The position numbers were made by a program, and so were the translations under genes. The notes beneath the pieces are model-generated. The model worked only from the letters and a program-made list of their open reading frames with translations, did not search any database and had not been told where the DNA came from. 64,000 nt of DNA from Deltaproteobacteria bacterium (GTDB taxonomy: Bacteria; SAR324; JACQKK01): positions 9,939-73,938 of the forward strand of contig JAOUEW010000008.1 in NCBI GenBank assembly GCA_029858505.1, in the 5' to 3' direction. Below, piece after piece: positions 19,265 through 63,789 of the stretch; position 1 is the first letter of the stretch; each line of letters opens with the position of its first letter.

Positions 19265-19405
19265 TTTGGATTGCCGCCTGAAAGGCGGCGGGGAGGGGTA
19301 TTTCAAAGAGAGATCATACGGCAGCATGAATGGAGCCTGAACAAACAAAACCATGGTTTCACCCATGATCTGGGACAACCCCCAGAAAGAAAATAGGAGA
19401 CATCT

Positions 19406-19479
19406 GCATAACCAGGGTTTTTGCCGTGAAAAGGGGGAATGGGAGATGGGAAAAAATAGGTTATGCAGAGGTCTCTATA
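19406..19479 (+). promoter_or_regulatory. Copy 2 of the conserved upstream motif, embedded in an inverted-repeat structure about 170 bp upstream of the oxidase operon.
   Basis: TGCATAACCAGGGTTTTTGCCGTGAAAAGGGGGAATGGGAG. Arms CTGCATAACC / GGTTATGCAG flank the core. The distal arm GGTTATGCAGAGGTCTCTATA is the reverse complement of TATAGA(CA)GAGACCTtTGCATAACC at copy 1. Confidence 0.5.
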
Positions 19480-23217: not shown

Positions 23218-23403
23218 GGAATTCCAGCATCCCCCTCAACCGTTCCGTTGATTCCGCCGGACGGAAGCCATCCCGTCACTTATCGGCTTCAAACCATCCC
23301 CCCCTCCCTGATTGGGGAGGGGGCAGGGGGGAGAGGTGTTGATGGGGGGTGTTGTTGGGAGAGATGTGAAAAATAAAGGTTAAGCAAATGTCTCCGGGAA
23401 CGG

Positions 23404-24453
23404 TTACTCCACCCAGGTGATTTGACCCTTCAGGGCTTCCACGTTGGCCGGGCGGTATTCCGGATCGGCGGCCATTTTTTGTTTCACGCTCACGTGCAGG
23501 TTGGGGGAGCGGGCCGGGTTCAGGCGGCCGTCTTCCAGCACCCCAATTTCCCGAGGCTTTTGGGTCCAACCCGCGGGCAGCACCCGGTGGGGGTAAATAT
23601 CGGCGGCGGGGTTGGGGTGAATCTGTTGGAAAGCGTTGTCTTTAAAGGTCAGCCCCAGGGCCTGGGCTTTCTTCATCATATACGCCAGCGATAGGTCCGA
23701 CAGCCCCTCCTGGGGCACGCCCCCGCCCACGTCCTCGTGGCCGCCGGGGAACCACACTTCTTCCACCTTGTCTTGGCGGTTCATCTGGGTGGGGGTTAAA
23801 ATTTCCCGGTTCTCATCCACCGCCACCAGGTGCAGGGCCTGCTTAATGTTGGGGGCCACCGTGAGGTTTTTGAACAGGTTGATCTTTTGAAAGGGGCCGT
23901 TTGGAATGCCAAAGGCTGCCATGGTCTCCCAAACGCCCACCAATTCAATGTCCACCGGACGAAACCCGCCCCGGTTTTCAAAGGCCACCACCTCGCCCCG
24001 CATGTTTTTCACAATGCGAATGGCTTCGGGAATGCCCCGCTGATGAATTTTCTGGGCCAGCATCCGGGCGATGGCCGCCCCCCGGGAAAACCCAAACAGA
24101 AAAATGCGGTCGCCGGGGCGGTAGTTCGTCACCAACACCACATAGGCTTGGTCGCGCAGCAAGTCGGCGCTGGCGCCGTCTCCTCCCAGGGGGGGGCCGC
24201 CCACAGAGGCCTCGGCCGGGGCCCCAACCCCTGGAAAATAGCGGGCGAACTGCCGGGAAGAATCGGCCAGCAGGCCGTAGAGTTTCAACACGTTGCTGGC
24301 CGAGCCGTTGTTTTTTTCATCTCCGGCGGGCAGGTTCCAGGTGCCATCCACGCACAGAACAAAATTCCGCGGGGATTCCTGCATTTGCCCTAAGTTGGGG
24401 TAATAGGTGTACTCGTGGCGCATGGTGTGGGTAGGAATAAGGGTGTAAGCCAA
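23404..24453 (-). CDS. DUF2235 alpha/beta hydrolase (same family as T6SS Tle1-type phospholipase effectors).
   Basis: FVLCVDGTWN near the N-terminus and a GFSRGAA nucleophile elbow are typical of DUF2235. Confidence 0.65.
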   Translation of the reverse strand: MAYTLIPTHTMRHEYTYYPNLGQMQESPRNFVLCVDGTWNLPAGDEKNNGSASNVLKLYGLLADSSRQFARYFPGVGAPAEASVGGPPLGGDGASADLLRDQAYVVLVTNYRPGDRIFLFGFSRGAAIARMLAQKIHQRGIPEAIRIVKNMRGEVVAFENRGGFRPVDIELVGVWETMAAFGIPNGPFQKINLFKNLTVAPNIKQALHLVAVDENREILTPTQMNRQDKVEEVWFPGGHEDVGGGVPQEGLSDLSLAYMMKKAQALGLTFKDNAFQQIHPNPAADIYPHRVLPAGWTQKPREIGVLEDGRLNPARSPNLHVSVKQKMAADPEYRPANVEALKGQITWVE

Positions 24454-25877: not shown

Positions 25878-26405
25878 TCAGGGGGCGTCGATCAACCCCA
25901 GGGCAGCAAGCCCCTGGCGATAAGCATCGCGCTTGAAGGGCACCACTTCTTCCGGCGCTTGGGCCACGTACACCCAGCGGTAATCATCAAACTCTGGGGG
26001 GTGGTGCTGAAAATGAATGGCCGTGACGGGCACTTTCAGCCGTACTAAAAACCAATACTGAGATTGACCCGTGAAGCGGGCCAAGGCGGGCTTGCCCTCG
26101 GTCAACCGCCGCAGCACATCGGGGGGGTAAAGGTAGGGGATGGGCTGGGGGGTTTGCTTCACCACTTCCACTTCGTCGGTGCCAATCTCTTCTTTCAGTT
26201 CGCGCAGCAAGGCTTGCAGGGGGGTTTCGCCCGGGTCCATGCCCCCTTGAGGAAACTGCCAGCGATATTCTCCCAGGCCGTCTCCCACCCGGCGGAACAT
26301 CAGCACCTCGTTCCCGCCTTCGCTGGCCACCACGGCCAGCACCGCCGGGCGCAAATGGGGGTTGTCTGCCTGGAGAGTCACGGACTGGGGGGTTGGGTTA
26401 GTCAT
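25878..26405 (-). CDS. NUDIX hydrolase (RppH/NudH-like).
   Basis: Nudix box GGMDPGETPLQALLRELKEEIG. Confidence 0.8.
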   Translation of the reverse strand: MTNPTPQSVTLQADNPHLRPAVLAVVASEGGNEVLMFRRVGDGLGEYRWQFPQGGMDPGETPLQALLRELKEEIGTDEVEVVKQTPQPIPYLYPPDVLRRLTEGKPALARFTGQSQYWFLVRLKVPVTAIHFQHHPPEFDDYRWVYVAQAPEEVVPFKRDAYRQGLAALGLIDAP

Positions 26406-27522
26406 CGGGGTATCTGCTTTTAATGGCCACCACGTGGTCTATATTGCCCAAGAATTGTTCCACCAAGGTGGGGTCAAAATGGGTTCCCGCCATTTTACGC
26501 ATCATGCTCACCGCCTCGTACCACGAGAAAGCGTCTTTGTACACGCGGCGGTTGGTGAGAGCGTCGAACACATCGCATATGGCCGTGATGCGGGCCTCGA
26601 GGGGGATGTTTTCCCCCTTCAATCCTTTGGGATAGCCCGTGCCGTCCCATTTTTCGTGGTGGTGCAGGGCCACCATCGCGGCCATTTCCAACAGGGGCAC
26701 CTGGGACCCCCGCAAAATTTGATAGCCGATGTCCACGTGAGTTTTCATCAATTCATATTCCGCCGGGGTGAGTTTTTCCGGCTTGTGCAGCACGTCGTCG
26801 GGAATGCCGATTTTCCCAATGTCGTGCAGGGCGGAAGCGGGGCGGATCATCCGCTGGGACGGCTCGTCCATGCCAGCCAGTTCAGCCAAGTATTGAGAGT
26901 AATGACTCATCCGCTGCACGTGGCGGTGGGTTTCGTTGTCGCGGAATTCGGCCACCCGCATCAGGCGGTTCACGATTTCCTCCTGAGCATATACCAAGTT
27001 CTGCTGGGTGTTTTTCAGAGTCACCAGGGTGGTACGCAGGTCTTCCGTCCGTTCCTGAATATCCAGTTCCAGGTTCACGCGTGCTTGGCGCTGGGCCATT
27101 TCCAACTGCCTTCGGCGCAGGGCGTTCGTCACGTTGATGATGAGCTCGATGGTCTTGAAGGGTTTGATTAAGTACCCATAGGCCCCTAAGGCCAGCACCT
27201 TGTCCGAGTTTTCCCGCTGATCGGAGGCGGTGACCATGATGGTGGCCATGTCGGGGAAGACTTTCAGGGTGCGTTCAATCAGTTCCAGGCCGCTCAACCC
27301 CGGCATGTTGATGTCGCACAGCATCAAGTCAAACGTATGCTCGCTTAACTGGGCCAGGGCATCCAAGGCATTCACCGCCTCAACGGGGGCAAAGCCCTCC
27401 CGACGCAAAATATCGCAGATCATTTTGCGCACCAGCCGGTCGTCATCCACCACCAGTGTCCGCACCGATTGGGGCGGCGCCAAAGGCGCTTCGGCGGGGG
27501 GCTGGGGGTTCGGTGGTTCCAT
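26398..27522 (-). CDS. Response regulator with an HD-GYP phosphodiesterase domain.
   Basis: Receiver LVVDDDRLVRKMICDIL...CDINMPGLSG, then HDIGKIGIPDDVL...HHHEKWDGTGYPKGL (HD-GYP). Confidence 0.85.
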   Translation of the reverse strand: MEPPNPQPPAEAPLAPPQSVRTLVVDDDRLVRKMICDILRREGFAPVEAVNALDALAQLSEHTFDLMLCDINMPGLSGLELIERTLKVFPDMATIMVTASDQRENSDKVLALGAYGYLIKPFKTIELIINVTNALRRRQLEMAQRQARVNLELDIQERTEDLRTTLVTLKNTQQNLVYAQEEIVNRLMRVAEFRDNETHRHVQRMSHYSQYLAELAGMDEPSQRMIRPASALHDIGKIGIPDDVLHKPEKLTPAEYELMKTHVDIGYQILRGSQVPLLEMAAMVALHHHEKWDGTGYPKGLKGENIPLEARITAICDVFDALTNRRVYKDAFSWYEAVSMMRKMAGTHFDPTLVEQFLGNIDHVVAIKSRYPDD

Positions 27523-27617
27523 GGGTCTTTGCTTAGGGGGGTCAATATTTAGGGGATAAAAAATAGAGGAAAATTTTTAGGCAAACGGTTTGAACAAACC
27601 TTTTGAAAATACCGAGA

Positions 27618-28316
27618 TCAGCGCCCCAGCACCGTGTTCAACACACGGGGGTCGGCCAAGTTGGCAAACAAATGACCCGGTTGGTGGGCGGCCAAGTCTT
27701 CCAGAGAATACCGCCCCGTGGCCACCGCCACGGCGGTCCAACCCAGGGGCCGACAACAGGCAATGTCTGCCGGGGTATCCCCCACCACCACCACCGACCG
27801 GCCGGGAAACACCGTTCCCCACTCCAAGCGGGCGGCCTCCAGGGCCAGGGGGGGCAGGTCCATCCGGCTTTCGTGGTATTGCCCAAAGGCCCCCAGGGCA
27901 AATTCTTCTTCCAGCCCGGCGGCTGATAATTTTAGGCGGGAAGATTCCTCGCAGTTGCCGGTGAGCAGCCCCACCAGCACACCCTCCATCGCGTTCAGCC
28001 GACGCAACAGGTCTTTCACCCCAGGATGAACCGTGATGTGCTCCGCCGACATGCGCTGGGGCAGCAAAAAAAAATAAGCCTCCCACAGGGCCTCTAGCCG
28101 GGGAGGAACCGCCTCTCTGGGCAAACCAGCCGCCGCGGCAAAGTCATACACAATGGCCAGTTCGGTTTTCCCGTCCATCAGGCGGCCATCGTTGGGCGGG
28201 CGCACGCCGTAAACCTCGGTAAAAGCGTCTTCCAGGGCTTTCACCGCCCGCCCGTTGGTGTCGAGCAGAGTGCCATCGATGTCGAACAACACCATCCGGT
28301 GAAAGGTATGATCCAT
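27618..28316 (-). CDS. HAD-superfamily hydrolase (phosphoglycolate phosphatase-like).
   Basis: Motif I MVLFDIDGTLLDT. Start set at MDHTFHR. Confidence 0.7.
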   Translation of the reverse strand: MDHTFHRMVLFDIDGTLLDTNGRAVKALEDAFTEVYGVRPPNDGRLMDGKTELAIVYDFAAAAGLPREAVPPRLEALWEAYFFLLPQRMSAEHITVHPGVKDLLRRLNAMEGVLVGLLTGNCEESSRLKLSAAGLEEEFALGAFGQYHESRMDLPPLALEAARLEWGTVFPGRSVVVVGDTPADIACCRPLGWTAVAVATGRYSLEDLAAHQPGHLFANLADPRVLNTVLGR

Positions 28317-28563
28317 GGGTGATGATTCGCGTTCAGCCTGAAAATAAAGCCGTTTTTTCACCGCCAGTGCGGCCCCGGAAAGAGGGCCCAAAACCGCCGG
28401 TGAAAGAATATTGGATCCGGTTGATGAACCAAAGTTTACCCCAGGCGCCCCCTGGGGGCAAAAATATTTTTACGGAATTTCTTTTCCATCCGGGGGATTT
28501 TTTTCTAAAATAGGTACCATGGTATAAGAGATTCATTCACCCTTTTTCGTTTGGAATGGCCCC

Positions 28564-29934
28564 ATGGATGTCACCAGTGAAATGCTGAACAAATACAACG
28601 TATCGGCCCCCCGGTACACGTCCTATCCCGCCATTCCCTTTTGGAAGCCCGCCGACGGCACCCAGGCCGCGGCTTGGATTGCCGCCATGGAACCCGCCCG
28701 GCAAACCTCTTTGTCTTTGTACACCCACATTCCCTTTTGCAAAACCCGCTGTTACTACTGCGGCTGTTTCGTGGTGATTTCTCCCCACGAAGAGATTGCC
28801 CAGCCCTACGCCGATGCCCTGGAAAAAGAAATGGAACTGGCGGCGGGGCAAATGAAACACCGCTGGCCGGTGGCCCAGTATCACCTGGGGGGCGGCACCC
28901 CCAATTACCTAAACATTGCCCGAATGGAACGCTTGGTGGCCAAAGCCCGGGCGTTGTTTCCCTTTCAAGACGATGCCGAGATGAGCATTGAGGTTGACCC
29001 CCGCACCCTGAACAAAAATTATCTGGAACGGGTAAGGGCCCTGGGGTTCAACCGGCTGAGCCTGGGGGTTCAAGACTTCGACCCCGAAGTGATGGAAACG
29101 GTGAACCGGGTGCAGCCTTACGACATGGTGGCTGGCGTGGTGGAGCAGGCCCGCAAACTGGGCTTTTTATCGGTCAACTTTGATTTGATCTACGGGCTGC
29201 CCAAGCAAACCACCGCCACCTTTCAAAAAACCATGGCCCAGGTAAAAACCTTGGGCCCGGACCGGGTGGCGCTGTACCACTACGCCCACCTGCCCGACTC
29301 TCATCCCTATCACCGCCGGTTCGACCCAGCGGACCTGCCCGGCAGCCAAGAAAAGATGGATATTTTTCTGCAGGCCAGGGAGCGGTTTTTGTCGTGGGGT
29401 TATCAACCCATTGGGTTGGACCACTTTGCCAAGCCCGATGATGACCTGTCGGTGTCCTTCCGCAACCGCTCTATGCGGCGGAACTTTATGGGCTACACCA
29501 CCAAAGCCGGAACCGACATGCTGGCCTTTGGCATCAGCGCCATCAGCGATTTCAACCATGCCTTCTGGCAAAACGAAAAAAAGCTGCCCCATTATTACAA
29601 AGCCCTGGAAAAAGGCGAGCTGCCCGTGATTCGCGGATTGGAGCTGAGCGGAGACGACCGCCTGCGCCGCCAGGTCATCCAAAACCTGTTCTGCCAGGGG
29701 GGGGTAAATTTTGGGCAGATGGAGCAGGCCTACCAGATTCCGTTCCAAAGCCACTTTGCCGGAGAACTGGAAGCCCTGGCCCCCCTGCAAGACGATGGCT
29801 TGGTGACCCTTTCTCCAGAGGGCATCACCGTCACCGATCAGGGGCAGTTGTTCCTGCGGAACATCGCCATGACCTTCGACGCTTACCTGCGAAAAGGCAG
29901 CAAACCCCCGGTGCAGTTCTCTCGCACGGCATAA
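28564..29934 (+). CDS. hemN: Oxygen-independent coproporphyrinogen III oxidase (radical SAM).
   Basis: YTHIPFCKTRCYYCGC radical-SAM cluster motif. About 456 aa with an HemN C-terminal domain. Confidence 0.85.
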   Translation: MDVTSEMLNKYNVSAPRYTSYPAIPFWKPADGTQAAAWIAAMEPARQTSLSLYTHIPFCKTRCYYCGCFVVISPHEEIAQPYADALEKEMELAAGQMKHRWPVAQYHLGGGTPNYLNIARMERLVAKARALFPFQDDAEMSIEVDPRTLNKNYLERVRALGFNRLSLGVQDFDPEVMETVNRVQPYDMVAGVVEQARKLGFLSVNFDLIYGLPKQTTATFQKTMAQVKTLGPDRVALYHYAHLPDSHPYHRRFDPADLPGSQEKMDIFLQARERFLSWGYQPIGLDHFAKPDDDLSVSFRNRSMRRNFMGYTTKAGTDMLAFGISAISDFNHAFWQNEKKLPHYYKALEKGELPVIRGLELSGDDRLRRQVIQNLFCQGGVNFGQMEQAYQIPFQSHFAGELEALAPLQDDGLVTLSPEGITVTDQGQLFLRNIAMTFDAYLRKGSKPPVQFSRTA

Positions 29935-29982
29935 CGGGCGCCCCACAACCGGGATGGACAACCTCACCCCCAGAGAACCCCC

Positions 29983-31134
29983 ATGGCTGCGTCTCCCACC
30001 GATCAGGCCGAACGGATTTTGGCCGGAAAAAACAAAGAAACCATCCAGCGCCTGATGCAGGGGGTAATGCCCGTGCTGCAAGAAACCTGGGGAAACCCCG
30101 GGCGCTTTCAAGAAAAAGCCGTGGAGGCCCTGGACAAAGCCGCTCCCAGCTTGCTTTCCGAGATGGAAGCCGTGACCCTGTCTGGCCCCCTGGCCCAAAG
30201 CGTGTATCACCTGCTCGATGTCCACTTTCGCGCGGCATCGTCCACCCCAGAATTAAACGCCCTGCAAGTGAAGCTGGGAGCCAGCATGGTGTCTCCCTTC
30301 CGCCAGGGATGCCTGTGGCTGGCGGTGAAACTGCGCCAAGCCCAGTTGGTGTACCTGTCGGGGGAAGGCAAGGGCGCCCTAACCCGGCTGGCGGCGGGGC
30401 TGCAAAAAAACCTGGACAACCTGCCCCCTGAGTTGCGGGGCCTGGAACCCACCACCCTGGCTCGTCTGGAGTCGAAGCTGGCCGACGTCACCCTGCAGAT
30501 TTTGGGTCAGGCGTTGGGGCGGTTCTCGGCGGCCACCCTGGCTGGCCGCCTGCTGGAAATGGCCCGCGGCCAAGCCCGCATAGCTCCAGCGGCGGGGGCC
30601 GCGGAAGCCACGGCACCATCGGGGTACGGGGCCCTGCTGGCCCGCCTGGGCGACGCGGTGGTGAAGGCCGAAACCGCCCAGGCCCAATTCCGGTTTTCTC
30701 ACCTGGATGAAAACGGCCGGAAAACCCTGGCCAACAAAATGCGGCAGGCCATGGGTCAACAGCTTCCCCCCCTGCTGGCCCTGGCGCCGGAAGGATTCGA
30801 AACATTTTGCCGGGGAGTAGAAGCCGTGGTGTTCCCCTACCCCGAACAGGTGGAGTTTATCCGGGGGTTTTTGAAAACCCTGTATACCACCGCCAAGCAG
30901 GCCGCTTGGTTCAACGATTGCCCCACCCAAGCCAGCATCGTTCAGCAATACCGAAAACTGGCCGAAACCAAAACCATCAACCCCCTGACCCTGGCCCTGG
31001 CCAGAACCTTCGCCACCCACTCCCTGGCGGGCGGCGGGTTGACCCAGGCCTCCCTAGACGTGTTCTCCCTGGACCTGGTGGGGGAATTCCATTGGCCCCG
31101 CACGGTCGAAGACCTGCTGGCCCAATCGGCGTAA
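29983..31134 (+). CDS. Hypothetical protein (383 aa, helical). First gene of a three-gene cluster of unknown function.
   Basis: Intact ORF with good codon periodicity. No recognisable family. Confidence 0.45.
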   Translation: MAASPTDQAERILAGKNKETIQRLMQGVMPVLQETWGNPGRFQEKAVEALDKAAPSLLSEMEAVTLSGPLAQSVYHLLDVHFRAASSTPELNALQVKLGASMVSPFRQGCLWLAVKLRQAQLVYLSGEGKGALTRLAAGLQKNLDNLPPELRGLEPTTLARLESKLADVTLQILGQALGRFSAATLAGRLLEMARGQARIAPAAGAAEATAPSGYGALLARLGDAVVKAETAQAQFRFSHLDENGRKTLANKMRQAMGQQLPPLLALAPEGFETFCRGVEAVVFPYPEQVEFIRGFLKTLYTTAKQAAWFNDCPTQASIVQQYRKLAETKTINPLTLALARTFATHSLAGGGLTQASLDVFSLDLVGEFHWPRTVEDLLAQSA

Positions 31135-31156
31135 ATCTTCACCCCCCAATCCTTTT

Positions 31157-31376
31157 CTCGAAGCCATCGGCTATTCTCTACAACCGTTCGGTGGATGAAG
31201 ATTGAACGGATGCAAGCGCATAGCATCGCGGCTTCGAGTGATTCCCAAAAGCACCTCTCCCCTGCCCCCTGGCGGGGGCATCCCCTCCCCAATCAGGGAG
31301 GGGAAAGACTCGAAGCCATCGGCTATTCTCTACAACCGTTTGGTTGGTGAAAACTGAACGGATGCAAGCGCATCAC
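31157..31376. repeat. Two copies of the ~125-bp structured repeat family between the first and second genes of the unknown cluster.
   Basis: CTCGAAGCCATCGGCTATTCTCTACAACCGTTCGG...GCGGCTTCGAG (31157-31238) and a second head CTCGAAGCCATCGGCTATTCTCTACAACCGTTTGG at 31309-31376. A GC hairpin GCCCCCTGGCGGGGGC lies between them. Confidence 0.65.
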
Positions 31377-31501
31377 CCACCGGAGGGGAGTATTGGGTGC
31401 GGATGGGATGCCGCAAATAAAAATACACTTGATCTTGGAAAAACAATTGAATTAAGGTGAGGTGTCCACTGTCGCACTCCTGATCACCCCTCCCCCCCAA
31501 G

Positions 31502-32326
31502 GTGCCCATGCCCCCTGAATCTGGAACTGGCCAAGCGGCCACCATTTTACAAACCTTGTCGGATTTTATCGGCATAGAAGCCGGAAAACTCATTGAGGTC
31601 GGCGAGGTACTGGTGGCGGTAGGCTTACTGGTCATGACCCTGATGGAGCTGGTGAAAAACATGTTTCACCTGCGGTTGTTTTTTCACCGCTGGCAGGTGC
31701 GGCGCTGGCTGAACGCCCGGCCCAACCCCCGAGCCTACGAGCAGTTGATTCTGCTGGCCACGGGCTCCGCCCCCGGATCGTCTCCTGGCCTGTTGGGGCG
31801 GATGTCTGGTTTGCTGCTGGGAGACTTCCACCCCGGCGATGCCCTGTTTGACCAACCCACCACCAAAATGATGGGCCAGATCCAAGCGGCGGCCAACCAG
31901 GCCCTGGACTTCCCCCATTTGTTCCCCCATGTGTATGGCGTGTTGGCGGCGGCCTCCCCCGGCACCCTAAGCCCAGAGGGTGAAACTTGGCTGGCCTATG
32001 CCCAATCTCTCCAGGGCAAATCCACCAAAGGGAAAACACCGGTGTCGCTGGAGCAGGCCCTGCAAGCCAAAACCCAGGTGACCAAACTGGCCGCCCGCAA
32101 ACTAGACGCCCTGCAAAACAAAATAGACACCCTGTGGGCCCAACTGAACCAGCGGGTTTCGGTGGTCTCCGGTGCCCTGTTGATTGGCTACGCCCTGTCG
32201 AACGGAGCCGGGCGTGAAACGATGAGCGGATGGACCATCGCGGGCCTGGCGGTGATGGGCGGCATGATCTCTCCCTTTGCCAAAGACGTGGTGTCGGCGC
32301 TGGCGGGCCTGAAAAAGAGGGGCTGA
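31502..32326 (+). CDS. Hypothetical membrane protein (274 aa). Second gene of the cluster.
   Basis: ORF with N- and C-terminal hydrophobic helices. No family recognised. Confidence 0.45.
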   Translation: MPMPPESGTGQAATILQTLSDFIGIEAGKLIEVGEVLVAVGLLVMTLMELVKNMFHLRLFFHRWQVRRWLNARPNPRAYEQLILLATGSAPGSSPGLLGRMSGLLLGDFHPGDALFDQPTTKMMGQIQAAANQALDFPHLFPHVYGVLAAASPGTLSPEGETWLAYAQSLQGKSTKGKTPVSLEQALQAKTQVTKLAARKLDALQNKIDTLWAQLNQRVSVVSGALLIGYALSNGAGRETMSGWTIAGLAVMGGMISPFAKDVVSALAGLKKRG

Positions 32327-32329
32327 CCC

Positions 32330-33313
32330 ATGGACACCCAACCCTGGCTGGAATTGAGCTTTCGGCAATCCCCCGTGGGGGGAGACACCCAAGAAGCCCA
32401 CGGCGATATTACCGCCCTGGGCGAAGCCCTGGCCGGAGACCCCGCCCTTGGCGTGGTGTTTCTGGTGCATGGGTTTAACGTAACCCAGGCAGAGGGGCGA
32501 GAGGCTTATCGGGGGATGAACTTGGCCCAGGGGGCCCTGGCCCCCGGCCGCGACAACACCCCCCTGGCGTCGGGGCGGCAGGTGGTGCAGGTGTTTTGGG
32601 CCGGAGACCTGGACGCCCCGGAACTGGCGCGGCCCGCCTTTTATCCCTTTGCCATTGGCCGGGCCAGAGAAACAGGCCGGTTGTTCGCGGCCTTCCTGAG
32701 CAGCCTGGGGGCCCACCGCCCGGCGGACCAACCGCTGTCGGTCGAATTCATCGGCCATTCCATGGGCTGCCGGGTCATTCTGGAAACCCTGAAAAACCTG
32801 CCCGTGAAAGATCGGCTGTGGATTCACCGCGTGTTGTACTTGGCGGCGGCGGTGCCCACCCATAAGTTAGAAACCGGTAAGCAGGGAGACCTGCGCCCCA
32901 CCTGGCTGCAATGGAGCCAGGGAGAGATTCCCTGGCACAGCCTGCATTCTTGGGATGACCTGGTGCTGACCTATGCCTTTCCCCTGGGGCAAAGCCTAGG
33001 GGGGCCGGGAGAAGGCGTGCTGCCCACCGCCTTGGGCCGAAACCATTGCTGGATTCCCCTGCCCTACTTTCAGCAAACCCGCATCGCCCACGCCGGGCAT
33101 TCTGACTATTGGGGGAACCAACTGCAAAACCCCGGCGGGTGCTCCAAAGAAGAAACCCAGGCCAACAAAGATGCCGCCTGGGCCATCAACCAATACATGG
33201 GTTTTACCCAGGGCGGCCCCCGAGAATCCGCAGCCCGAGAAACCGCCGCTCGGGCGGTGATGGAAGCTCAGTCTGCCGGGCTGGAGCGGACCACCCCCCA
33301 AGTGGATTTATAA
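32330..33313 (+). CDS. Alpha/beta hydrolase of unknown function (DUF900-like serine hydrolase). Third gene of the cluster.
   Basis: VVFLVHGFN...FIGHSMGCRV nucleophile elbow (GxSxG). Start is 4 bp after the upstream stop. Confidence 0.55.
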   Translation: MDTQPWLELSFRQSPVGGDTQEAHGDITALGEALAGDPALGVVFLVHGFNVTQAEGREAYRGMNLAQGALAPGRDNTPLASGRQVVQVFWAGDLDAPELARPAFYPFAIGRARETGRLFAAFLSSLGAHRPADQPLSVEFIGHSMGCRVILETLKNLPVKDRLWIHRVLYLAAAVPTHKLETGKQGDLRPTWLQWSQGEIPWHSLHSWDDLVLTYAFPLGQSLGGPGEGVLPTALGRNHCWIPLPYFQQTRIAHAGHSDYWGNQLQNPGGCSKEETQANKDAAWAINQYMGFTQGGPRESAARETAARAVMEAQSAGLERTTPQVDL

Positions 33314-33453
33314 TCTTCAACACGATCAAACCGTTAGCCCATGGGGCCCATTTGTGGTTTGTAAACCCCGCCAGGAGAGGATAGAGTGGAGGTAACCTTC
33401 ACTGGGCAGTTCTTGATCTTCTGCCCCTGCGTCGCCCGAATCCCCCGCTTCCC

Positions 33454-33792
33454 ATGACCAAACGAGAACGCACTTACTACCGCGTGACCTTCACCAATGA
33501 AGTCGGTGAAGAAGAAGAAATCATCCAGGTCACGGCCCGGTACGTGTCGCCCTCCGACATGTACGGGCTGGTGGAAATCTCTGGCTTTGTGTTCCCCGAA
33601 GGGGGCCTGCTGCACAACCCCCAAACCGAACGGATCCGCAAAGAATTCGCCGACATCAAGCGCACCTGGCTGCCCTACCACGCCATTTTGCGCATTGACG
33701 AGGTGAGCGATGCCTCTGCGGCGGACCTGCGGGTGGTCCCCATGGACGGCACCCGTAAATCCCCCGAAAAAGTTCCCTCCAAAAACAGTTAG
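33454..33792 (+). CDS. Small conserved hypothetical protein (112 aa).
   Basis: Clean ORF, acidic N-terminus. No confident family assignment. Confidence 0.4.
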   Translation: MTKRERTYYRVTFTNEVGEEEEIIQVTARYVSPSDMYGLVEISGFVFPEGGLLHNPQTERIRKEFADIKRTWLPYHAILRIDEVSDASAADLRVVPMDGTRKSPEKVPSKNS

Positions 33793-33802
33793 GGGCCCTT
33801 TA

Positions 33803-34325
33803 CTCGAATCCACCGGCTATTTCATTCGGCCGTTCGGATGGGTCGGGTGAACGGAAACAAGCAACGCCCTAACGCCATTGAACTCCCCCTCTCTTCGGGA
33901 GAGGGGGGCGGGGGGTGAGGTCCAATGGCTCGAATCCACCGGCTATTCTATTCTCCTGTTCGGATGGGTCGGGCGAACGGAAACAAGCAACGCCCTAACG
34001 CCTTTGAACTCCCCCTCTCTTCGGGAGAGGGGGGCGGGGGGTGAGGTCCAATGGCTCGAATCCACCGGCTATTCTATTCTCCCGTTCGGATGGGTCGGGC
34101 GAACGGAAACAAGCAACGCCCTAACGCCTTTGAACTCCCCCTCTCTTCGGGAGAGGGGGGCGGGGGGTGAGGTCCAATGGCTCGAATCCACCGGCTATTC
34201 TATTCTCCCGTTCGGATGGGTTGGGCGAACGGAAACAAGCAACGCCCTAACGCCATTGAACTCCCCCTCTCTTCGGGAGAGGGGGGCGGGGGGTGAGGTC
34301 CAATGGCTCGAATCCACCGGCTTCG
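33803..34325. repeat. Tandem array of about 4.2 copies of a 126-bp unit of the structured repeat family.
   Basis: Unit starts at 33803, 33929, 34055, 34181 and 34307, exactly 126 bp apart and over 97% identical. Each unit carries the CCGTTCGGATGGGTCGGGCGAACGG hairpin and the CCCCCTCTCTTCGGGAGAGGGGG UUCG-loop hairpin. Confidence 0.85.
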
Positions 34326-34375
34326 AGAATCAAGAGGTGATTGAAGAATAAACGGGGAGAGAAAAACCGAACCCT

Positions 34376-34876
34376 TTACCAGCGGTATTCAACCCGAGAC
34401 CCAGGCCGCAACCCCAACCGTTCGGCCTGCCCGGCAGCCAGTTCCAGCACAAAGTTGGCCTCGGCGTCTGGGGCATAGGTGGGCAAATCACCATCGGGGG
34501 TGCCGGGGGGCTGGAACGGCACCCTGGAAGCCACGTACACCACCTGATTGTTATGCAACCACACGATATCAATGGAAAACACCATTCGCTTCATCCAAAA
34601 CCCATAGCGCCCAGGGCTGGCATACACAAACAACATGCCTTCGTTGGGCCCCAGCCCTTTCCGCCCCCCCAACCCCATGGCCCGCAGGGCGTCGGAGTCG
34701 GCGATGTCTACCCGAATCTCCTTGCCCCCCGCCACCACGACGGCCTGATTCATGCCTTGGTTCTTGGCCCCCCTGGCGGGGGTCCCCTGTAGAACCGAGA
34801 TGCTTAGGGCCAGCACCAGCAGGCCTTTCCCTAACCATGAGAAGCGCACATGTTGATTGGCGGACTTCAAACGCAT
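34376..34876 (-). CDS. DUF192 (COG1430) secreted protein.
   Basis: GMLFVYASPGRYGFWMKRMVFSIDIVWL core motif. Start set at MRLKS with a signal peptide. Confidence 0.65.
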   Translation of the reverse strand: MRLKSANQHVRFSWLGKGLLVLALSISVLQGTPARGAKNQGMNQAVVVAGGKEIRVDIADSDALRAMGLGGRKGLGPNEGMLFVYASPGRYGFWMKRMVFSIDIVWLHNNQVVYVASRVPFQPPGTPDGDLPTYAPDAEANFVLELAAGQAERLGLRPGSRVEYRW

Positions 34877-34983
34877 AGCGGAACCTGGAGAGAATGGGAT
34901 GGGGAAGGCTGATCTTTCGGTATGATAAGATGGACAAGACGGATAAGACCGAATGTGTTGCATGGCAACCGTAACCCGTACCG

Positions 34984-35502
34984 TTAGGCCATGGCGGCCA
35001 CCTTGGCCAGCCGTTTTTTCACCATATCCCGCCGTAGGGGAGGAAGATAGTCAATGAACAATTTTCCCTCCAGGTGATCCACCTCGTGCTGCAGGCACAC
35101 CGCCTCCAGACCCTCCAAGGTTTCCCGGCGGTGTTCCCCCTCCACCGTTTGGTATTCCACCGTTACCCGGCGGGAGCGCTTTACGTCGGCCCGAAATTCG
35201 GGAACGCTGAGGCAGCCTTCTTCCCCCACCCATTCGCCTTCTTGTTCCGTCAGGCGGGGGTTCACCCACACCCTGGGCTTCCGCAGGGCGGGGTCATCGT
35301 CTCCAGCGAAAATGTCGGTCACCACCAACCGGATGGAGCGCCCCACCTGGGGGGCCGCCAAGCCCATGCCCTCATTTTGATACATGGCGGCGGTCATCTG
35401 CCGGGCCAGCTCGGCCAAGGCGGCATCGAAGGTTTCCACCGGATCGGCTTTTCGCCGCAGGAAGGGATCGGGGAAGGTCAGAATGGTAAAGGGGGAAGAC
35501 AT
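34984..35502 (-). CDS. def: Peptide deformylase.
   Basis: GMGLAAPQVG, EGCLSVPEF and HEVDHLEG motifs. Confidence 0.9.
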   Translation of the reverse strand: MSSPFTILTFPDPFLRRKADPVETFDAALAELARQMTAAMYQNEGMGLAAPQVGRSIRLVVTDIFAGDDDPALRKPRVWVNPRLTEQEGEWVGEEGCLSVPEFRADVKRSRRVTVEYQTVEGEHRRETLEGLEAVCLQHEVDHLEGKLFIDYLPPLRRDMVKKRLAKVAAMA

Positions 35503-35799
35503 AAGTAAAACAAGCTCCTAAGAACAATCTTCCGTAAACCGTCTGGGTAAAACCATCGCCCAGTGAGCGCGGGGTGGATGGGTTATATTTTAACGCCAGA
35601 ATGCGCCCCGATCAATGGGATGGTAACTTGGTCACAGTGTAACCTCTGGGGGGATACTATCCTAAGATTGTCTGGATGATCGTTGTCCGTGAAAACCAGG
35701 GCTATGCCCCCGGCAAGTCAACGGCACAAAACAACTGAATAACGGAACCTTTCGCGAAATCTTCCGTTACAACCACAAGATCAATTGGAGGAACAGCCC

Positions 35800-36150
35800 A
35801 TGAGTTTGGTCATGGAATTAACCGATGAAACGTTTGTGAAAGAAGTGGTCGAAGCCGGGGTGCCGGTGATGGTGGATTTCTGGGCCCCCTGGTGCGGGCC
35901 TTGCCGGGCCGTGGCCCCCACCATGGAGGAAGTGGCCAGCGAGTTTCAGGGCCGGGCCAAGGTGGTAAAAGTCAATGTGGATGAAAACCAGGGCGTGTCT
36001 GGGGCCATGAACATTCGCTCCATTCCCACCGTGGCGGTGTTTGTGGGCAACACGGTGGTGGATATGCGGATGGGGGCCCTGCCCAAACCCCATTATCAGC
36101 AGATGTTGAACAATGCCTTGGCTGGCCAGGGAACTTCTCCCACAGCCTAA
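35800..36150 (+). CDS. trxA: Thioredoxin.
   Basis: WAPWCGPCR active site. Confidence 0.9.
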   Translation: MSLVMELTDETFVKEVVEAGVPVMVDFWAPWCGPCRAVAPTMEEVASEFQGRAKVVKVNVDENQGVSGAMNIRSIPTVAVFVGNTVVDMRMGALPKPHYQQMLNNALAGQGTSPTA

Positions 36151-36304
36151 CGTTATACCATAGAACGAGACGCCGTGGGTTCCGGTCGCAGCCCCCCCCT
36201 CCCCAGCGACCGGAGCCCCGGCGTTCCTCGTTTTTTCCCCATCGGATTCTTTCCCTTCCTTTTTTATCCCCTTTATTCTCATTTCTTCTTCCGCCGTCCC
36301 GATA

Positions 36305-36745
36305 CTCGAAGCCAGCGGTTATTCTGTTCATCCGTTAAAGCACCCCTCCCTGGCACCTTCGGTGCCTGTCCCTCCCCATCGTGGAGGGACAATACGGCTT
36401 AGGCCGAGGGGTGGAGATAGAATCCGTTTGGATGAGGAGACCGGAAGGAAGCAAGCGATTAACTTTTCGGCTTCGCTTTATTTCCCCTCCACGAAGGGGA
36501 GGGGATGTCCGCACAGCGGGCAGGGGAGGGGTGCTTTACGAGAGGGGCAGTGCTCGAAGCCAGCGGTTATTTTCTTCAACCGTTCAGTTGGTGAAAACTG
36601 AGCGGAAACAAGCAACGCCCAAACGCCATTGAGCTCCCCCTCTCTTCGGGAGAGGGGGCGGGGGGTGAGGTCCAAATACTCGAAGCCATCGGTTATTTTC
36701 TTCAACCGTTCGAATTGAGAAGACAGGAGGGCGGAAATACACCCC
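36305..36745. repeat. Cluster of three units of the structured repeat family (one expanded unit with nested inverted repeats, one full unit, one partial).
   Basis: Unit heads CTCGAAGCCAGCGGTTATT at 36305 and 36553, and CTCGAAGCCATCGGTTATT at 36678. The 36553-36677 unit is about 85% identical to the 33803 array unit. 36340-36534 contains nested palindromes GCACCCCTCCCTG...CAGGGGAGGGGTGC and GTCCCTCCCC...GGGGAGGGGATGTCC. Confidence 0.8.
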
Positions 36746-36765
36746 CCGATTGCGAACTGCCCCCC

Positions 36766-38694
36766 TTAGGGGGCGGGCTGAGGGGGCTGAGACGAGGCAG
36801 GTTCAGTAGGTGGAGCTGGGGCGGGAGCTTCCAGCATGGGCGCCGCAGTGGTGCCGGGGATATCCACAAACGGGATGTTTTGACGGAACAACACGCCTTC
36901 TTCCGGCGGGCGGCTGCCCTCGAATAAAACCGGGTCACTGGCGGTGAGGTACAAGATGAGGGTTTTTCGGGCTTTCTCCTGGTTGTTCATCCGCCGATAC
37001 ACCCGGCTGAGCCGCTCTAAAAACACCGTGCGGTAATGGTTGTTTTTTTCCAGCCCGGCTTCGAGCAGATCCCGGGCCAGCACCCAGTTGCCGCTTTCTT
37101 CGGCCACCCGGCTGGCCCCCTCAATCAACCCATAGTTTCGGGGATACAACGCCAGCCCCCGGTTGAACACCGCTTCGGCCTGCTTCAGGTTTCCCTCCAT
37201 TTGATACAGGTTCCCCACGGCCCGGTGAAAGGCCCCCAGGCCTTCTCCCCGGGTAAGGTAGGGGGTGAGCATTTGCAGCGCCTTGCGGGTGTTTCCCAGG
37301 CGGCCTTCCGCGGTACCGGCCAGATACACCGCCTCCCAGGGGGGGTCTTTCATGGCCAGCAGGGGTTTCGCCCCCTCCAGCGCGGCATTGTAATCGCCTT
37401 GAATGTAGGCCAGCCTGGCCCGGGCAAACAAGATGGCCGTTCCATGGTCGGGCAGCCCATCCAACACTTGTTTGGCTTCCGCAAAGCGGCCGGTCAGGGT
37501 GAGCCACTCCCCCTTCACCAGCAATCCCCGAAAATCGGTGGGGTTCAATTTCAAGTATTCTTCAATCCGCAGCCGTGCCTCCTCCAGTTTTCGCTCGGCC
37601 ATCAGCCGCTGAATTTTCAGCAGCTTGATCTGCGGATTTTCCGGATTGATTTTTTCCGCGGCGTTCAACAGGGTTTGCGCTTGGTCGGTTTCCTCTGCCC
37701 GGAACAGCAGCACGGCTTTCCAATACAGGGCTTCCTGTTGGTTGGGCTCAATATCTAGCAGGGTATTCAGCGATTCCATGGCCTGGGGGTGTTCCCCCCG
37801 GGAGATGGCCCCCCTGGCCAGGGCCAACAACACCCCCGGATGGGAAGGTTGGTGGCGGGCCAGCCCAGCCAGCAACTGGTCGGCTTGTTGAATTTCTCCT
37901 TTGCTCCGCAAGATCTCCACCCGCACCAATTGATCTTCGGTTTCCAAACCATCTTTTTGGCGCAATTGGCCCATCACCTTCAGGGCGTCGTCCCATTCCT
38001 GTCGCTGGTAATGAATATCCAGTTGCTCACGCAGCAAATCCGGGTCTCCCGGCCACTGGCGAAGGTCATCGCTGATCACCAGGGAAGCCACCGAAAAGTT
38101 ACCGCTGGCCTTCAAGATGCGAATTTTCAGCACCCGGGCATCGTGATCGTTGGGAGACACCCCCAGGGCGGCTTCCACCTCTCGGCGGGCCTCGGCCTGG
38201 CGGCCCAAGGCAAACAGCATGCGGGCATACTGAAACCGGCCTTCGAAATAACGTGGATCCCGCGCGGTGATTTTGGCTAAGATTTCCAACCCGCGGTCGG
38301 TTTGGTTCACCAGTTCATGGGTCATGGCCAGTTTCACGCTGGCCGACAGCAGGTCGGGGTCTATTTGGCTGGCTTGGTTGTAGGCCATCAGGGCGGGGAA
38401 ATACTTCTTTTGCCCCAGGTTGGCATCCCCCAGGGTCACTAAAATTTGGGCGTCGTAGGGATTCAACTTGGCAGCCTGGGCCGCGTAGGGCTCGGCTTCG
38501 GCGGGTTTGTTTTCTTTCACCAGCACCTGGGCCAACTCATGCAGCAATTCGGCATCCTCCGGCTGGCTCTCAACTTGTTTCCGGAGTTCCAACTCTCTCT
38601 GGGCCAGCTGGGTGGATAGTTCTTTGGCGCGCCAGGGGTTCAGCACCGACAGGTCGGAACAGCCGGAGAGGACGATCAACACGCCCGCCAACAT
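36766..38694 (-). CDS. Tetratricopeptide-repeat lipoprotein.
   Basis: Multiple TPR units across the full length. Start chosen at MLAGVLIVLSGC (lipobox); the ORF-track 5' extension is Arg/Gly-rich and overlaps the upstream gene. Confidence 0.65.
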   Translation of the reverse strand: MLAGVLIVLSGCSDLSVLNPWRAKELSTQLAQRELELRKQVESQPEDAELLHELAQVLVKENKPAEAEPYAAQAAKLNPYDAQILVTLGDANLGQKKYFPALMAYNQASQIDPDLLSASVKLAMTHELVNQTDRGLEILAKITARDPRYFEGRFQYARMLFALGRQAEARREVEAALGVSPNDHDARVLKIRILKASGNFSVASLVISDDLRQWPGDPDLLREQLDIHYQRQEWDDALKVMGQLRQKDGLETEDQLVRVEILRSKGEIQQADQLLAGLARHQPSHPGVLLALARGAISRGEHPQAMESLNTLLDIEPNQQEALYWKAVLLFRAEETDQAQTLLNAAEKINPENPQIKLLKIQRLMAERKLEEARLRIEEYLKLNPTDFRGLLVKGEWLTLTGRFAEAKQVLDGLPDHGTAILFARARLAYIQGDYNAALEGAKPLLAMKDPPWEAVYLAGTAEGRLGNTRKALQMLTPYLTRGEGLGAFHRAVGNLYQMEGNLKQAEAVFNRGLALYPRNYGLIEGASRVAEESGNWVLARDLLEAGLEKNNHYRTVFLERLSRVYRRMNNQEKARKTLILYLTASDPVLFEGSRPPEEGVLFRQNIPFVDIPGTTAAPMLEAPAPAPPTEPASSQPPQPAP

Positions 38695-38714
38695 TCCGGC
38701 CAATCCCTTTCCCG

Positions 38715-39548
38715 TTATTGCCGAGCGGCTTCTGCCGGCTGCACCTGAACCACGGGAGACAGCGGCCCCTCTCCGCCGAATTGATCCACCAGCCGCAGGG
38801 CATACTCCACCCGTGGGGAGGGCTTGGTCGGATCGGGTGTGGGGATGGCATCGGTCCAATGGTAGATATCCAAAGGTTTGGGGTTCAGGGGGGCCAAAGG
38901 CCAGGGGTTACCCTCGATTCGACGGTAAAGATTGGCCCTGAAATAGCGGACCTGGGTCTCCCGGGTTTCTGCTGGGTGATAGGAACGCAAAACTTGTTCC
39001 CTTCGGGGCTGCCAAGACAAAAGAAGGTTCCTCCGCCCCGTGGATTCCCGGGAGGAACCATTGGAAGGTGATTCCCAGGCCCAAGATACCGAGTGGGCTG
39101 GGATTTGGTTGAGCCGACCCAGGGGCAATTTAGCGGAAGGGTCTGATATTCCGGATGAATACCTCACAGAAATCTGAAATTCCCACTTTCCCGGCGTGGG
39201 GCGCATTCTGTACAGGGTAAACAGGCGGTCAAACTCCGCTTGCACCTGGTCGGACCCTTCCGGCAGAAAAGCCTGTTCCGTATTGGGAGAACAGGTCTCA
39301 CAATCCACCGGATACACATCTATCCGCAGCCAGTACCCCATCACCTCTCCCCATTGGCCGCGCAAATCGGCAGAGGGACGGATCCAACTGATCAGGGCGT
39401 AATCTTCCCGCTGCTGAATCCGCACCCCGGTGAGGGGGGGAATTCGCCGCAAGTCGGGGTGGGGGGGGGTTTTATACCCACAACCGGCAGGGACCAACAA
39501 ACACCCCGCCACCACCCACCACGACCACATCCTCCGTTTTCCTTTCAT
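38715..39548 (-). CDS. Hypothetical lipoprotein.
   Basis: Start set at MKGKRRMWSWWVVAGCLLVPAGC (signal plus lipobox). No family recognised. Confidence 0.45.
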   Translation of the reverse strand: MKGKRRMWSWWVVAGCLLVPAGCGYKTPPHPDLRRIPPLTGVRIQQREDYALISWIRPSADLRGQWGEVMGYWLRIDVYPVDCETCSPNTEQAFLPEGSDQVQAEFDRLFTLYRMRPTPGKWEFQISVRYSSGISDPSAKLPLGRLNQIPAHSVSWAWESPSNGSSRESTGRRNLLLSWQPRREQVLRSYHPAETRETQVRYFRANLYRRIEGNPWPLAPLNPKPLDIYHWTDAIPTPDPTKPSPRVEYALRLVDQFGGEGPLSPVVQVQPAEAARQ

Positions 39549-39595
39549 ATTACCAAGACCTTTGGATTTCCGGCAAATATCCGGGGGTGGGGAAA

Positions 39596-40387
39596 TTAGG
39601 AGGGTTGAGGAGAAGACAGGCCCCCGCCCAGACCACTGCCTTGGTGCTCTCGCAGGGGCTGCTGAAAGTGAATGTGCACCCGGTACATGCCGATTTCTCC
39701 CGGCACCCGTTCGGTTTTCATCACCGTGCCCTTGGTGGGCTGATACAATCCCGTTCCATCGGGCTTGGGAAATTGCAGCACCAACGTGGTTCCCAGGCCA
39801 TAGTTCAGGTTGGAGCGAACGACGCATTTTTGAGACGATACTTCCTCGCACTCCCCCCGGGAAGCGTTGCGGTCGTGAATCAGGGCCACTGGCATCCGGG
39901 TTTCAAACGAACGAGAGGATTCCAGGGCGATTTTAAAACTATCGGCCCCGGAAATTTGCTTGCGTACTTCCACGGCTTCTTGCACTTTTTCTAAAAACTG
40001 CCCCGCCGAGAAGGGCTTACCCAAAAACACATCGGCCATGGCGTCGAGGGCTTGGTTGGCGGCTTGGGGGGTGTTGTCTTGAGAAGTGAGCAAAAAAGCC
40101 GGTTGAAATTTGATGTCCTTGTCGCTCCGAATCCGGGTGAGGATGTCGATCCCACCCATTTCGGGGAGCAGGTTCGAGCAGATAACCACCTGAAAGTTTT
40201 TATCTTTTTTCCATGCCTGCCAGGTTTCCGCCCCATTCTCTTGGGTGGTGATTTTATAGGCCCCGGCGTCTTTCAAGGCTTTGGTCATCATGCCCAGCAG
40301 GGCTGTGTTTTGCTCGGCCACCAGGTAATGAAACCGGCGCAGTTCATCGCTGAGGGTGGGTTGATCGGCCATGAGAAGGGCTTCCAA
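39596..40387 (-). CDS. Response-regulator receiver fused to a C-terminal PilZ domain.
   Basis: Receiver-like N-terminus (VVICSNLLPEMGGIDIL...FLLTSQ). PilZ-like C-terminus (CVVRSNLNYGLGTTLVLQF...GMYRVHIHF). Confidence 0.6.
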   Translation of the reverse strand: MEALLMADQPTLSDELRRFHYLVAEQNTALLGMMTKALKDAGAYKITTQENGAETWQAWKKDKNFQVVICSNLLPEMGGIDILTRIRSDKDIKFQPAFLLTSQDNTPQAANQALDAMADVFLGKPFSAGQFLEKVQEAVEVRKQISGADSFKIALESSRSFETRMPVALIHDRNASRGECEEVSSQKCVVRSNLNYGLGTTLVLQFPKPDGTGLYQPTKGTVMKTERVPGEIGMYRVHIHFQQPLREHQGSGLGGGLSSPQPS

Positions 40388-63738: not shown

Positions 63739-63789
63739 GCCCAAGAACGCAGCACTGGAATCTCGTGGGGGATGGAGAAAATCCGCGGC

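Follow-up and report, generated by a model that had tools for sequence, protein, structure and literature searches.

The stretch of DNA considered in the current work, 64,000 nucleotides of contig JAOUEW010000008.1 from an uncultivated "Deltaproteobacteria bacterium" (hereafter the window), carries two repeat units at positions 31157-31399. We read this locus, with a probability of roughly 0.6, as belonging to a family of palindromic DNA repeats that is spread over the genome, is non-coding and extragenic, and has a mosaic organization similar to that of bacterial interspersed mosaic elements (BIMEs). The family is undescribed, the kind of element is ordinary. A preliminary description of this locus, based on the letters of the sequence, had reported two copies of a repeat and a tandem array further downstream, and had read the three genes located in between as an accessory, recombination-prone cluster; its observation of the repeats is real and has been confirmed, and its reading of the genes stands in part (see below).

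Repeat units, arms and blocks

The order of elements at the locus is a complete core (31157-31238), an arm (31239-31308) and a further core, decayed at its 3' end (31309-31399). The first of these is a complete unit of 82 nt which indeed starts with CTCGAAGCCATCGG and ends with GCGGCTTCGAG, and its ends, CTCGAAGCC and GGCTTCGAG, proposed to be inverted, are perfect inverse complements over 9 bp. The folding of the whole unit into one long stem-loop, also proposed beforehand, is borne out by fold statistics on both strands: as RNA, the unit reaches a minimum free energy of -34.0 kcal/mol on the + strand and of -34.7 kcal/mol on the - strand (z = -4.26 and -4.77, respectively), with none of 200 shuffled sequences folding as well. 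The presence of a second head at 31309 is supported both by the sequence and by a count of the head motif CTCGAAKCCAYCGGCT, which occurs 11 times in the window, always on the + strand, with 0.13 occurrences expected by chance; the corresponding core is complete to about position 31383, after which the terminal TTCGAG has been lost. The tandem array that had been placed after 33792 was recovered by Tandem Repeats Finder with a period of 126 nt at 33803-34322 (4.1 copies, 97% matches), starting 11 nt past the stop codon of a DUF1820 gene.

A covariance model (named R1) was built from 39 units and used, together with an all-against-all comparison of the window, to define the repeat blocks. Five blocks are present in the window (8614-8813, 23224-23361, 31157-31399, 33803-34327 and 36305-36756), encompassing 13 core-type units according to R1, all on the + strand (Table 1). 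Each of these blocks is intergenic with respect to the list of open reading frames (ORFs) and their Pfam domains, and the repeats are devoid of coding capacity. About 68 additional units were detected by R1 in 218 kb of loci (L104-L128) of the JGI metagenome assembly Ga0224495, where the blocks are again positioned between ORFs; these loci were picked as carriers of the repeat. The 13 plus about 68 units refer to 282 kb in total, or ~10% of the genome.

The consensus core is CTCGAAKCCAYCGGYTATTCTNTTCANCCGTTCRG-loop-CYGGAMGGAAGCAAGCRCATNACNNNNCGGMTTCGAG, with an outer helix P1 (CTCGAAKCC/GGMTTCGAG) and an inner helix P2 (CCGTTCRG/CYGGAMGG). Alternating with the cores are G/C-rich arms that each form a double hairpin; they are of two types, which face each other. 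The L-type arm, upstream of the core and in the same sense, has the general sequence (TCCCAAC)AGCACCCCTCCCTG-[variable hairpin]-CTGTCCCTCCCC-loop-GGAGGGAC-AATR, while the R-type arm, downstream of the core, is approximately its inverse complement: TTATTT-CCCCTCC-ACGAA-GGGGAGGGG-ATGCC-[variable hairpin]-GGCAGGGGAGGGGTGYT. The combination of arm, core and arm generates a palindrome of ~200 nt, of which the window contains two examples (8614-8813 and 36339-36537; statistics of their single-stranded DNA (ssDNA) folds in Table 1). Cores and arms also form arrays with a period of ~150 nt (L104, L114, L118, L121, L124, L125 and L127). In the 126-nt unit the core tail is exchanged for AAGCAACGCCC(T/A)AACGCC followed by the hairpin CCCCCTCTCTTCGGGAGAGGGGG, and this unit is found in the window at 33803-34306 and 36553 as well as in L111, L112, L114, L115, L119 and L128. 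In a variant core, named B, the 5' half is complementary to its own 3' half (36396-36475 of the window; L109, L110, L113, L122 and L123), and further modules exist as head-only cores, tail-only cores and a 21-nt fusion of head to tail.

The variable hairpin of the arms adopts 14 distinct sequences in 27 arms, with at least six stems (GCGGC, GCACC, GTGCC, CCGCC, CCGTCC and CCTGC). It is always bracketed by CTG...CTG, and its pairs are all Watson-Crick with the exception of two (one G.T and one A.C).

Table 1 Repeat modules of the window and the genes that they flank
Feature	Position	Strand	Characteristics
Complete core	31157-31238	+	82 nt; P1 CTCGAAGCC/GGCTTCGAG; inner hairpin P2 CCGTTCGG...TTGAACGG; R1 84.8 bits, E 2.5e-17
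G/C-rich double-hairpin arm between cores	31239-31308	+	TGATTCCCAAA-AGCACCTCTCCCCTG-[CCCCCTGGCGGGGG]-CATCCCCTCCCC-AATCA-GGGAGGGG-AAAGA; homologous arms in L113 and L118
Second core	31309-31399	+	Head and P2 intact; 3' repeat degenerate, running into a decayed arm remnant (GGAGGGGAGTATTGGGTG); R1 31309-31390, 68.2 bits
Tandem array of four 126-nt units	33803-34306	+	Core variant (AAGCAACGCCCTAACGCC replaces tail) plus hairpin CCCCCTCTCTTCGGGAGAGGGGG; 4 R1 hits
Mini-palindrome closing the array, head fused to tail	34307-34327	+	21 nt; CTCGAATCCACCGGCTTCGAG; R1 21.7 bits on +, 17.6 on -
Head-only core	36305-36336	+	Truncated past CCGTT, arm joined on; 25.1 bits; same junction in L110
Composite palindrome of ~200 nt	36339-36537	+	L arm 36339-36395, variant core B 36396-36475, R arm 36476-36535; ssDNA fold z -7.0
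Single 126-nt array-type unit	36553-36678	+	R1 59.6 bits; 93% in repeat-family comparison; 81-83% identical to array units
Core with intact head and divergent 3' half	36679-36756	+	36.6 bits; adjoins 3' end of TPR gene
Solitary composite element in divergent intergenic region	8614-8813	+	L arm 8614-8685, core 8686-8766, R arm 8767-8813; ssDNA fold z -7.6; 59.3 bits
Partial core and arm variant	23224-23361	+	P2 to tail ~23237-23293, then CCCCCCCTCCCTGATTGGGGAGGGGGCAGGGGGGAGAGGTG; 25.4 bits
Two-gene module (context)	31508-33313	+	272-aa predicted membrane protein and 327-aa DUF900-type alpha/beta hydrolase
DUF1820 gene (context)	33454-33792	+	Directly upstream of array

Local amplification of the units is evident from their identity values, since units inside an array (94-99% identical) are far more alike than units of different arrays (76-89%). 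The assemblies are irregular at these places: the Logan contigs L001 and L145 end within repeats, the ENA contig L140 reaches only to 33719, with the array starting 84 nt further on, and the length of the array depends on the assembly, with one 126-nt unit and the mini-unit in ENA contig L144 (ERZ27296335; 5181-5546), which joins window position 34323 straight to 33944, as compared to four units and the mini-unit in the window. Such breaks, together with an ORF of 157 aa that extends over the array, would be expected if the locus were either an assembly chimera formed at a repeat or a repetitive protein in which 126 nt correspond to 42 codons. However, the block at 31151-31384 is identical in the independent ENA assembly that includes L140, as is 36294-36731 in L144, so that the repeat blocks cannot be put down to the assembly process. 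A 42-codon protein repeat was ruled out by the positional GC content of the ORF, which is of non-coding type (0.58/0.55/0.66 versus ~0.65/0.43/0.74 for genes), and by unit spacings elsewhere that are not multiples of three, as is the case for two of the four spacings in L112 (239, 198, 237 and 209 nt); in addition, the 126-nt unit occurs singly at 36553. An artefact or a coding repeat is accordingly considered very improbable. The 157-aa ORF itself (33878-34351, + strand), which crosses the array owing to 126 being a multiple of three, could be mis-annotated by a gene caller.

DNA palindromes, RNA genes and mobile elements

Another explanation would be that the repeats are structured non-coding RNA genes, or cis-acting RNA elements, specified by the + strand, in which case the array would represent a battery of small RNAs (sRNAs) and the arms would be related to the motif whalefall-1. 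The latter (Rfam RF01762) is an orphan motif represented only by 16 sequences from whale-fall metagenomes; covariation and a tetraloop led its authors to rate it as an RNA, and it was interpreted as an sRNA (PMC2864571). Consistent with this explanation, all 13 units of the window are positioned on one strand, conservation is strong in the unpaired regions of the core, and the consensus of P2 includes U.G and G.U pairs that are confined to the sense strand. Moreover, while no Rfam family was matched at its gathering threshold, the E-value mode returned, besides noise, a sub-threshold match between the arm at 36341-36392 (- strand) and whalefall-1 (26.8 bits, E 7.6e-4, the gathering threshold of 37 bits being 10 bits higher), a score that is shared by the near-identical arm of L110.

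Against this, no covariation in excess of shuffled alignments was observed for the core (0.099 versus a shuffle mean of 0.112, with 472 of 500 shuffles scoring as high), and its pairing is thus taken to reflect shared ancestry rather than compensatory evolution; 85.5% of the core structure is paired, and positions 7 and 77 fail to pair in 23 of the 39 copies. No sigma-70-like promoter was found inside the repeats, the one promoter-like site returned by the consensus scan being located outside of them, and the 13 terminator-like sites of the region correspond to the background rate (9.4 ± 2.8 in shuffled sequences). The occurrence of all window units on a single strand has a probability of 0.06 if the five blocks are treated as independent, and elsewhere in the genome the loci mix strands and the units occur in either orientation relative to the flanking genes (~10 convergent, ~11 tandem and ~4 divergent spacers, according to crude gene calls). 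The arms, for their part, are present in both orientations within one and the same element, and most of them give E > 0.1 against whalefall-1. Folded RNA is expected to tolerate wobble pairs; a DNA palindrome, in turn, would have the perfect, strand-symmetric pairing that is seen in an arm module occurring in two orientations. The evidence therefore does not support an RNA gene, an explanation that we regard as decidedly unlikely.

Slightly more room, yet still little, is left for the repeats being classical miniature inverted-repeat transposable elements (MITEs), that is, deletion derivatives of a DDE-type insertion sequence (IS) which are moved by a transposase via their terminal inverted repeats and generate target-site duplications. 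Bacterial MITEs, which include Correia/NEMIS, ERIC/IRU, RUP and BOX (reviewed in PMC3184786), resemble the present family in being non-coding intergenic elements of 100-200 nt with inverted ends and long hairpins, and BOX is furthermore modular with a middle module that can be repeated. In the current family, the cores have terminal inverted repeats of 9 bp and the composites have inverted arms of ~50-70 bp, the elements are small, non-coding, intergenic and multi-copy, and 19 of 45 cores have the dinucleotide TA directly before the head. However, the remaining flank statistics (TG upstream of 12 cores, TT downstream of 21) do not reveal any matching duplication at the cores: the flanking bases differ on the two sides and form part of conserved junctions (ACAATR-core-TTATTT), by which a TA target duplication was ruled out. 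Furthermore, cores are nearly always set within other modules of the family and not in unique DNA, and the modules recombine freely (as illustrated by the head-only and tail-only cores and by the head-tail mini-unit), being shuffled in many combinations instead of constituting one fixed element. Neither a transposase, in the window or near the repeats examined, nor an IS with matching termini, in the window, was found.

A chromosomal integron-like cassette array, with the units acting as attC-type sites and the genes between them as cassettes, is the least probable of the explanations considered, and is close to negligible. The units are imperfect palindromes of 82-126 nt, a size near that of attC sites of the VCR type, and in the window they have a single orientation and separate small groups of genes of unknown function. 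Integron attC sites end in RYYYAAC...GTTRRRY (the R''/R' core sites), whereas the units described here end in CTCGAA...TTCGAG, and no intI tyrosine recombinase is encoded among the 53 ORFs of the window. In addition, units are arranged head to tail without an ORF between them, are located beside def and trx, and elsewhere occur in both orientations.

The preferred reading of the repeats as mosaic DNA palindromes finds its closest parallel in repetitive extragenic palindromic (REP) sequences and the BIMEs that they constitute. These are extragenic, G/C-rich palindromes of two alternating types, joined by conserved linkers, assembled in clusters of variable length and subject to complementary changes (PMC2817692, PMC3333891), and such clusters are known from Enterobacteria, Pseudomonas, Stenotrophomonas and Xanthomonas (PMC2817692, PMC3333891, PMC3116915). 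The family of the window is likewise extragenic, alternates two palindrome types with conserved linkers, and maintains pairing despite sequence change. It is probably also high in copy number, REPs being characterized by more than 100 copies per genome. Both also form doublets (those described here being comparable to REPINs) and are regularly spaced, the L and R arms facing each other across cores and the core-plus-arm arrays having periods of ~150 nt. They differ in that their sequences are dissimilar, in that the "linker" is here a hairpin unit of 82 nt with one orientation along an array, and in that each arm carries two hairpins, one of which has a hypervariable stem. The host, an uncultivated "Deltaproteobacteria"/SAR324-like metagenome-assembled genome (MAG), furthermore lies outside the taxa for which pairs of REP and REP-associated tyrosine transposase (RAYT) have been described. 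A second parallel is offered by the neisserial intergenic mosaic elements (NIMEs), where dRS3 repeats, 20-bp sites of a phage integrase, alternate with RS elements. As in NIMEs, a short conserved repeat alternates with longer, interchangeable modules in a manner linked to rearrangement, although the sequences are unrelated and the use by phage integrases is a feature of dRS3.

In favour of this reading, no transposase or integrase is encoded, according to Pfam, among the 53 ORFs of the window, whose backbone is of housekeeping type (mutL, valS, gltA, serA, lptF/G, def, trx, hemN, cytochrome oxidase and regulators). Several observations weigh against it. An enzyme able to move the units was not found: seven repeat-adjoining ORFs elsewhere are without a transposase domain, no Y1_Tnp domain occurs among the 60 ORFs scanned in all, and a crude regular-expression scan did not detect a HUH-Y1 enzyme motif in the 282 kb, i.e. 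~10% of the genome. No pair of insertion and empty site is at hand, and mobility itself is thus inferred. The difference in array length between assemblies could be due to real variation or to collapse of short reads. Whalefall-1, which one arm resembles, was rated an RNA by its authors (PMC2864571), and the wobble pairs of P2, restricted to the sense strand, fit the folding of one strand, be it RNA or ssDNA. Finally, the GT(A/G)G head that is found 5' of the palindrome and defines REPs of the RAYT type (PMC2817692) is absent from the arms, where the hairpin is preceded by CCTG/CTGT on one strand and by ACAG on the other, without GTAG or GTGG, so that the parallel with BIMEs is one of architecture and not of homology. 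Membership of the RAYT-associated REPs, whose genomes encode a rayt (Y1/HUH transposase) gene between two inverted units, is not supported, given the absence of this head and of a rayt gene in the sequence at hand.

Under the preferred reading, the units would be dispersed as DNA by a trans-acting function that recognizes hairpin or cruciform DNA, for which the candidates would be an enzyme of the REP/RAYT type or another kind, with its gene in a different part of the genome, or else recombination between copies. Arrays may grow and shrink by unequal crossing-over or replication slippage. The perfect pairing of the arm stems may be maintained by selection for the hairpin or cruciform, or by a known mutational process, the correction of quasi-palindromes through template switching. 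Any influence on genes nearby, for instance by 3' hairpins in transcripts or as breakpoints of rearrangement, would be a by-product and not a dedicated function.

Flanked genes and distribution of the family

Of the accessory, recombination-prone three-gene cluster proposed in the preliminary description, a two-gene module with a patchy distribution can be retained, whereas native codon usage and the presence of the same repeats at many other places count against the remainder. The genes at 31508-33792 are indeed bracketed by repeats, with blocks at 31151-31399 upstream and 33803-34327 downstream and a third one at 36305-36756, all within 5.6 kb. Yet the supposed cluster consists of the two-gene module and a separate DUF1820 gene, homologues of the latter (L130-L133) having different neighbours; the nearest of these homologues (62-63% identity) are accompanied by other genes and by no repeats. 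The best non-self relative of the 327-aa hydrolase is 41% identical, and the taxa in which relatives occur are patchy. Distant bacteria carry the module as well, at 34-38% identity and in unrelated gene neighbourhoods, where a predicted membrane protein of 250-270 aa (without Pfam family) is followed by the hydrolase (L141 3239-4954, L142 3234-4945 and L143 528-2239); two unrelated genomes have a homologue of the 272-aa protein (37-38% identity, E 2e-45 and 5e-40) ahead of the hydrolase, with overlapping stop and start codons and amid quite different genes. Judging from these comparisons, the distribution of the module looks accessory. The flanked genes did not give any hit in PADLOC. In L142 the module adjoins a SEC-C/Xre_MbcA_ParS_C gene and a DUF4011 helicase gene.

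The suggested checks of codon adaptation and GC skew did not set the three genes apart: their codon usage (z = -0.37, +0.72 and +0.84) and their GC content at third codon positions (GC3, 0.735-0.738) are typical of the window, and the GC skew has no local feature at the cluster. Native codon usage, GC3 and flat GC skew count against a recent acquisition of the three genes. Nor are the repeats tied to the cluster, as members of the family are also found next to def, trx and tupA-like genes and in dozens of other intergenic regions of the genome.

Comparison with relatives was made by means of HemN. The nearest relatives available are 57-65% identical in this protein, and their gene order is scrambled all round, so that presence or absence of repeats at their loci is uninformative. 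In the best of them (65%) the neighbours differ on both sides. In L137 and L138 (57%) a TPR operon adjoins the NUDIX-HAD-hemN group, and the window (25878-39851) differs from L137 (476-6170) and L138 by one inversion of NUDIX-HAD-hemN and by ~6.8 kb of extra sequence (29983-36760) which includes three repeat blocks. No R1 unit was found in the loci of relatives (L130-L139, 68 kb). The locus closest by HemN (L134, 65%), without core repeats, has one intergenic arm-like hairpin, AACCCCCTTCCCTTTGGGAAGGGGGCAGGGGG, at 3221-3253.

The wider distribution of the family was assessed by scanning the JGI metagenome collection with a degenerate pattern of 31 nt, CYCGAANCCANCGGYTATTNNNTNCNNCNGT. All 25 matching stretches are derived from the single assembly Ga0224495 (contigs of 982, 646, 267 and 126 kb plus smaller ones). 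These loci most likely represent other parts of the window's own genome, because proteins of the window are on record from JGI (on a contig of 91,380 bp) as well as in the NCBI MAG "Deltaproteobacteria bacterium", because a contig identical to the window was obtained from run SRR7132115, which shares with Ga0224495 also a hemN contig of another organism, and because the tetranucleotide profiles agree (r = 0.89-0.99 relative to the window, and at least 0.94 for all loci except L119; the two halves of the window correlate with each other at 0.98, unrelated genomes at 0.2-0.7). The possibility that the loci belong to a second species, with coding DNA unlike that of the window, was dropped on the same grounds.

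Beyond this assembly, a scan of species-representative genomes with a degenerate 19-nt head returned more than 100 single chance matches, which are uninformative, and L002-L081 were kept as negative controls. R1 gave only three weak hits (26-30 bits) in these unrelated genomes, pre-selected for the 19-nt head (571 kb), namely L037 6606-6679, L049 2845-2922 and L066 2041-2121, all of them from Acidobacteriaceae MAGs among the 80 unrelated loci; they probably represent one orthologous sequence with a chance head motif. Plasmid and phage collections searched by blastn gave no match, and the sole return from a scan of viral contigs was a contig of Ga0224495. As far as can be told, the family is therefore known from one genome or population. 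The 33.5-kb contig Ga0224495_10000439 (L119/L129), which has a unit of the 126-nt type at its end and is listed as a viral contig in IMG/VR (UViG 3300022208_000018), may be a prophage or a mis-binned phage, as its tetranucleotide correlation is the lowest of the set (0.89).

Three further features of the window were noted. A second small intergenic repeat, GAGACATCTGCATAACCCGGGTTTTTGCCGTGAAAAGGGGGAATGGG, is present at 12928-12974 and 19397-19443 of the window and at about 5031-5087 of L122; its three copies are 87-88% identical over ~47-57 nt, are unrelated to the core/arm family and have no Rfam hit. Near the end of the window, at 63667-63741, a 38-nt unit, TTCTTTCTGGCGGCCTGTCTAGCGGGCTGGGCCCGCCT, is perfectly duplicated in tandem (2.0 copies, 100% matches). 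The gene at 23404-24453 (- strand), adjoining the block 23224-23361, encodes a Tle1-like phospholipase catalytic domain of the type VI secretion system (T6SS; PF09994, E 2.5e-48), and no further T6SS gene was seen in the window.

The arm hairpin and significance of the family

The most interesting loose end is the arm hairpin, which combines a hypervariable stem with near-perfect pairing and a resemblance to whalefall-1. Both the arm and whalefall-1 have a hairpin of the CUCCCC/GGGGAG type, the sequence ACAG, a variable hairpin and a tail, CAGRGGGAGG, in which the 3' arm of the first hairpin appears once more. They differ in that the motif is here one inverted arm of a larger DNA palindrome, present in both orientations, and in that its score is sub-threshold. 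It is conceivable, as a long shot, that arm modules and whalefall-1 are the same kind of object, in which a fixed scaffold CACCCCTCCCTG ... CTGTCCCTCCCC-loop-GGAGGGAC holds a hairpin, bracketed by CTG...CTG, with a stem that varies between copies but is always perfectly paired. If true, whalefall-1 would really be one arm of a mobile mosaic DNA element; alternatively, the genome would carry ~100 copies of a hairpin RNA or ssDNA substrate of an undescribed hairpin-specific enzyme, with the variable stem as the segment that confers specificity or keeps a record.

Nothing in these findings is surprising in kind. For the organism concerned, the repeats are places where short-read assemblies break or collapse, and they mark spots prone to rearrangement. 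Considering that contigs end in or near repeats and that the array is shortened in L144, gene order and array length at these places are not trustworthy without long reads. Regarding the family itself, the absence of a GT(A/G)G head implies that it may have arisen independently of RAYT-type REPs. In its light, whalefall-1, an orphan among the Rfam motifs, could possibly be reinterpreted as a component of a repeat element. The family moreover extends the BIME-like mosaic architecture to a poorly sampled lineage, whose nearest named relatives are "Deltaproteobacteria bacterium" and SAR324 MAGs, with 54-65% identity in HemN.

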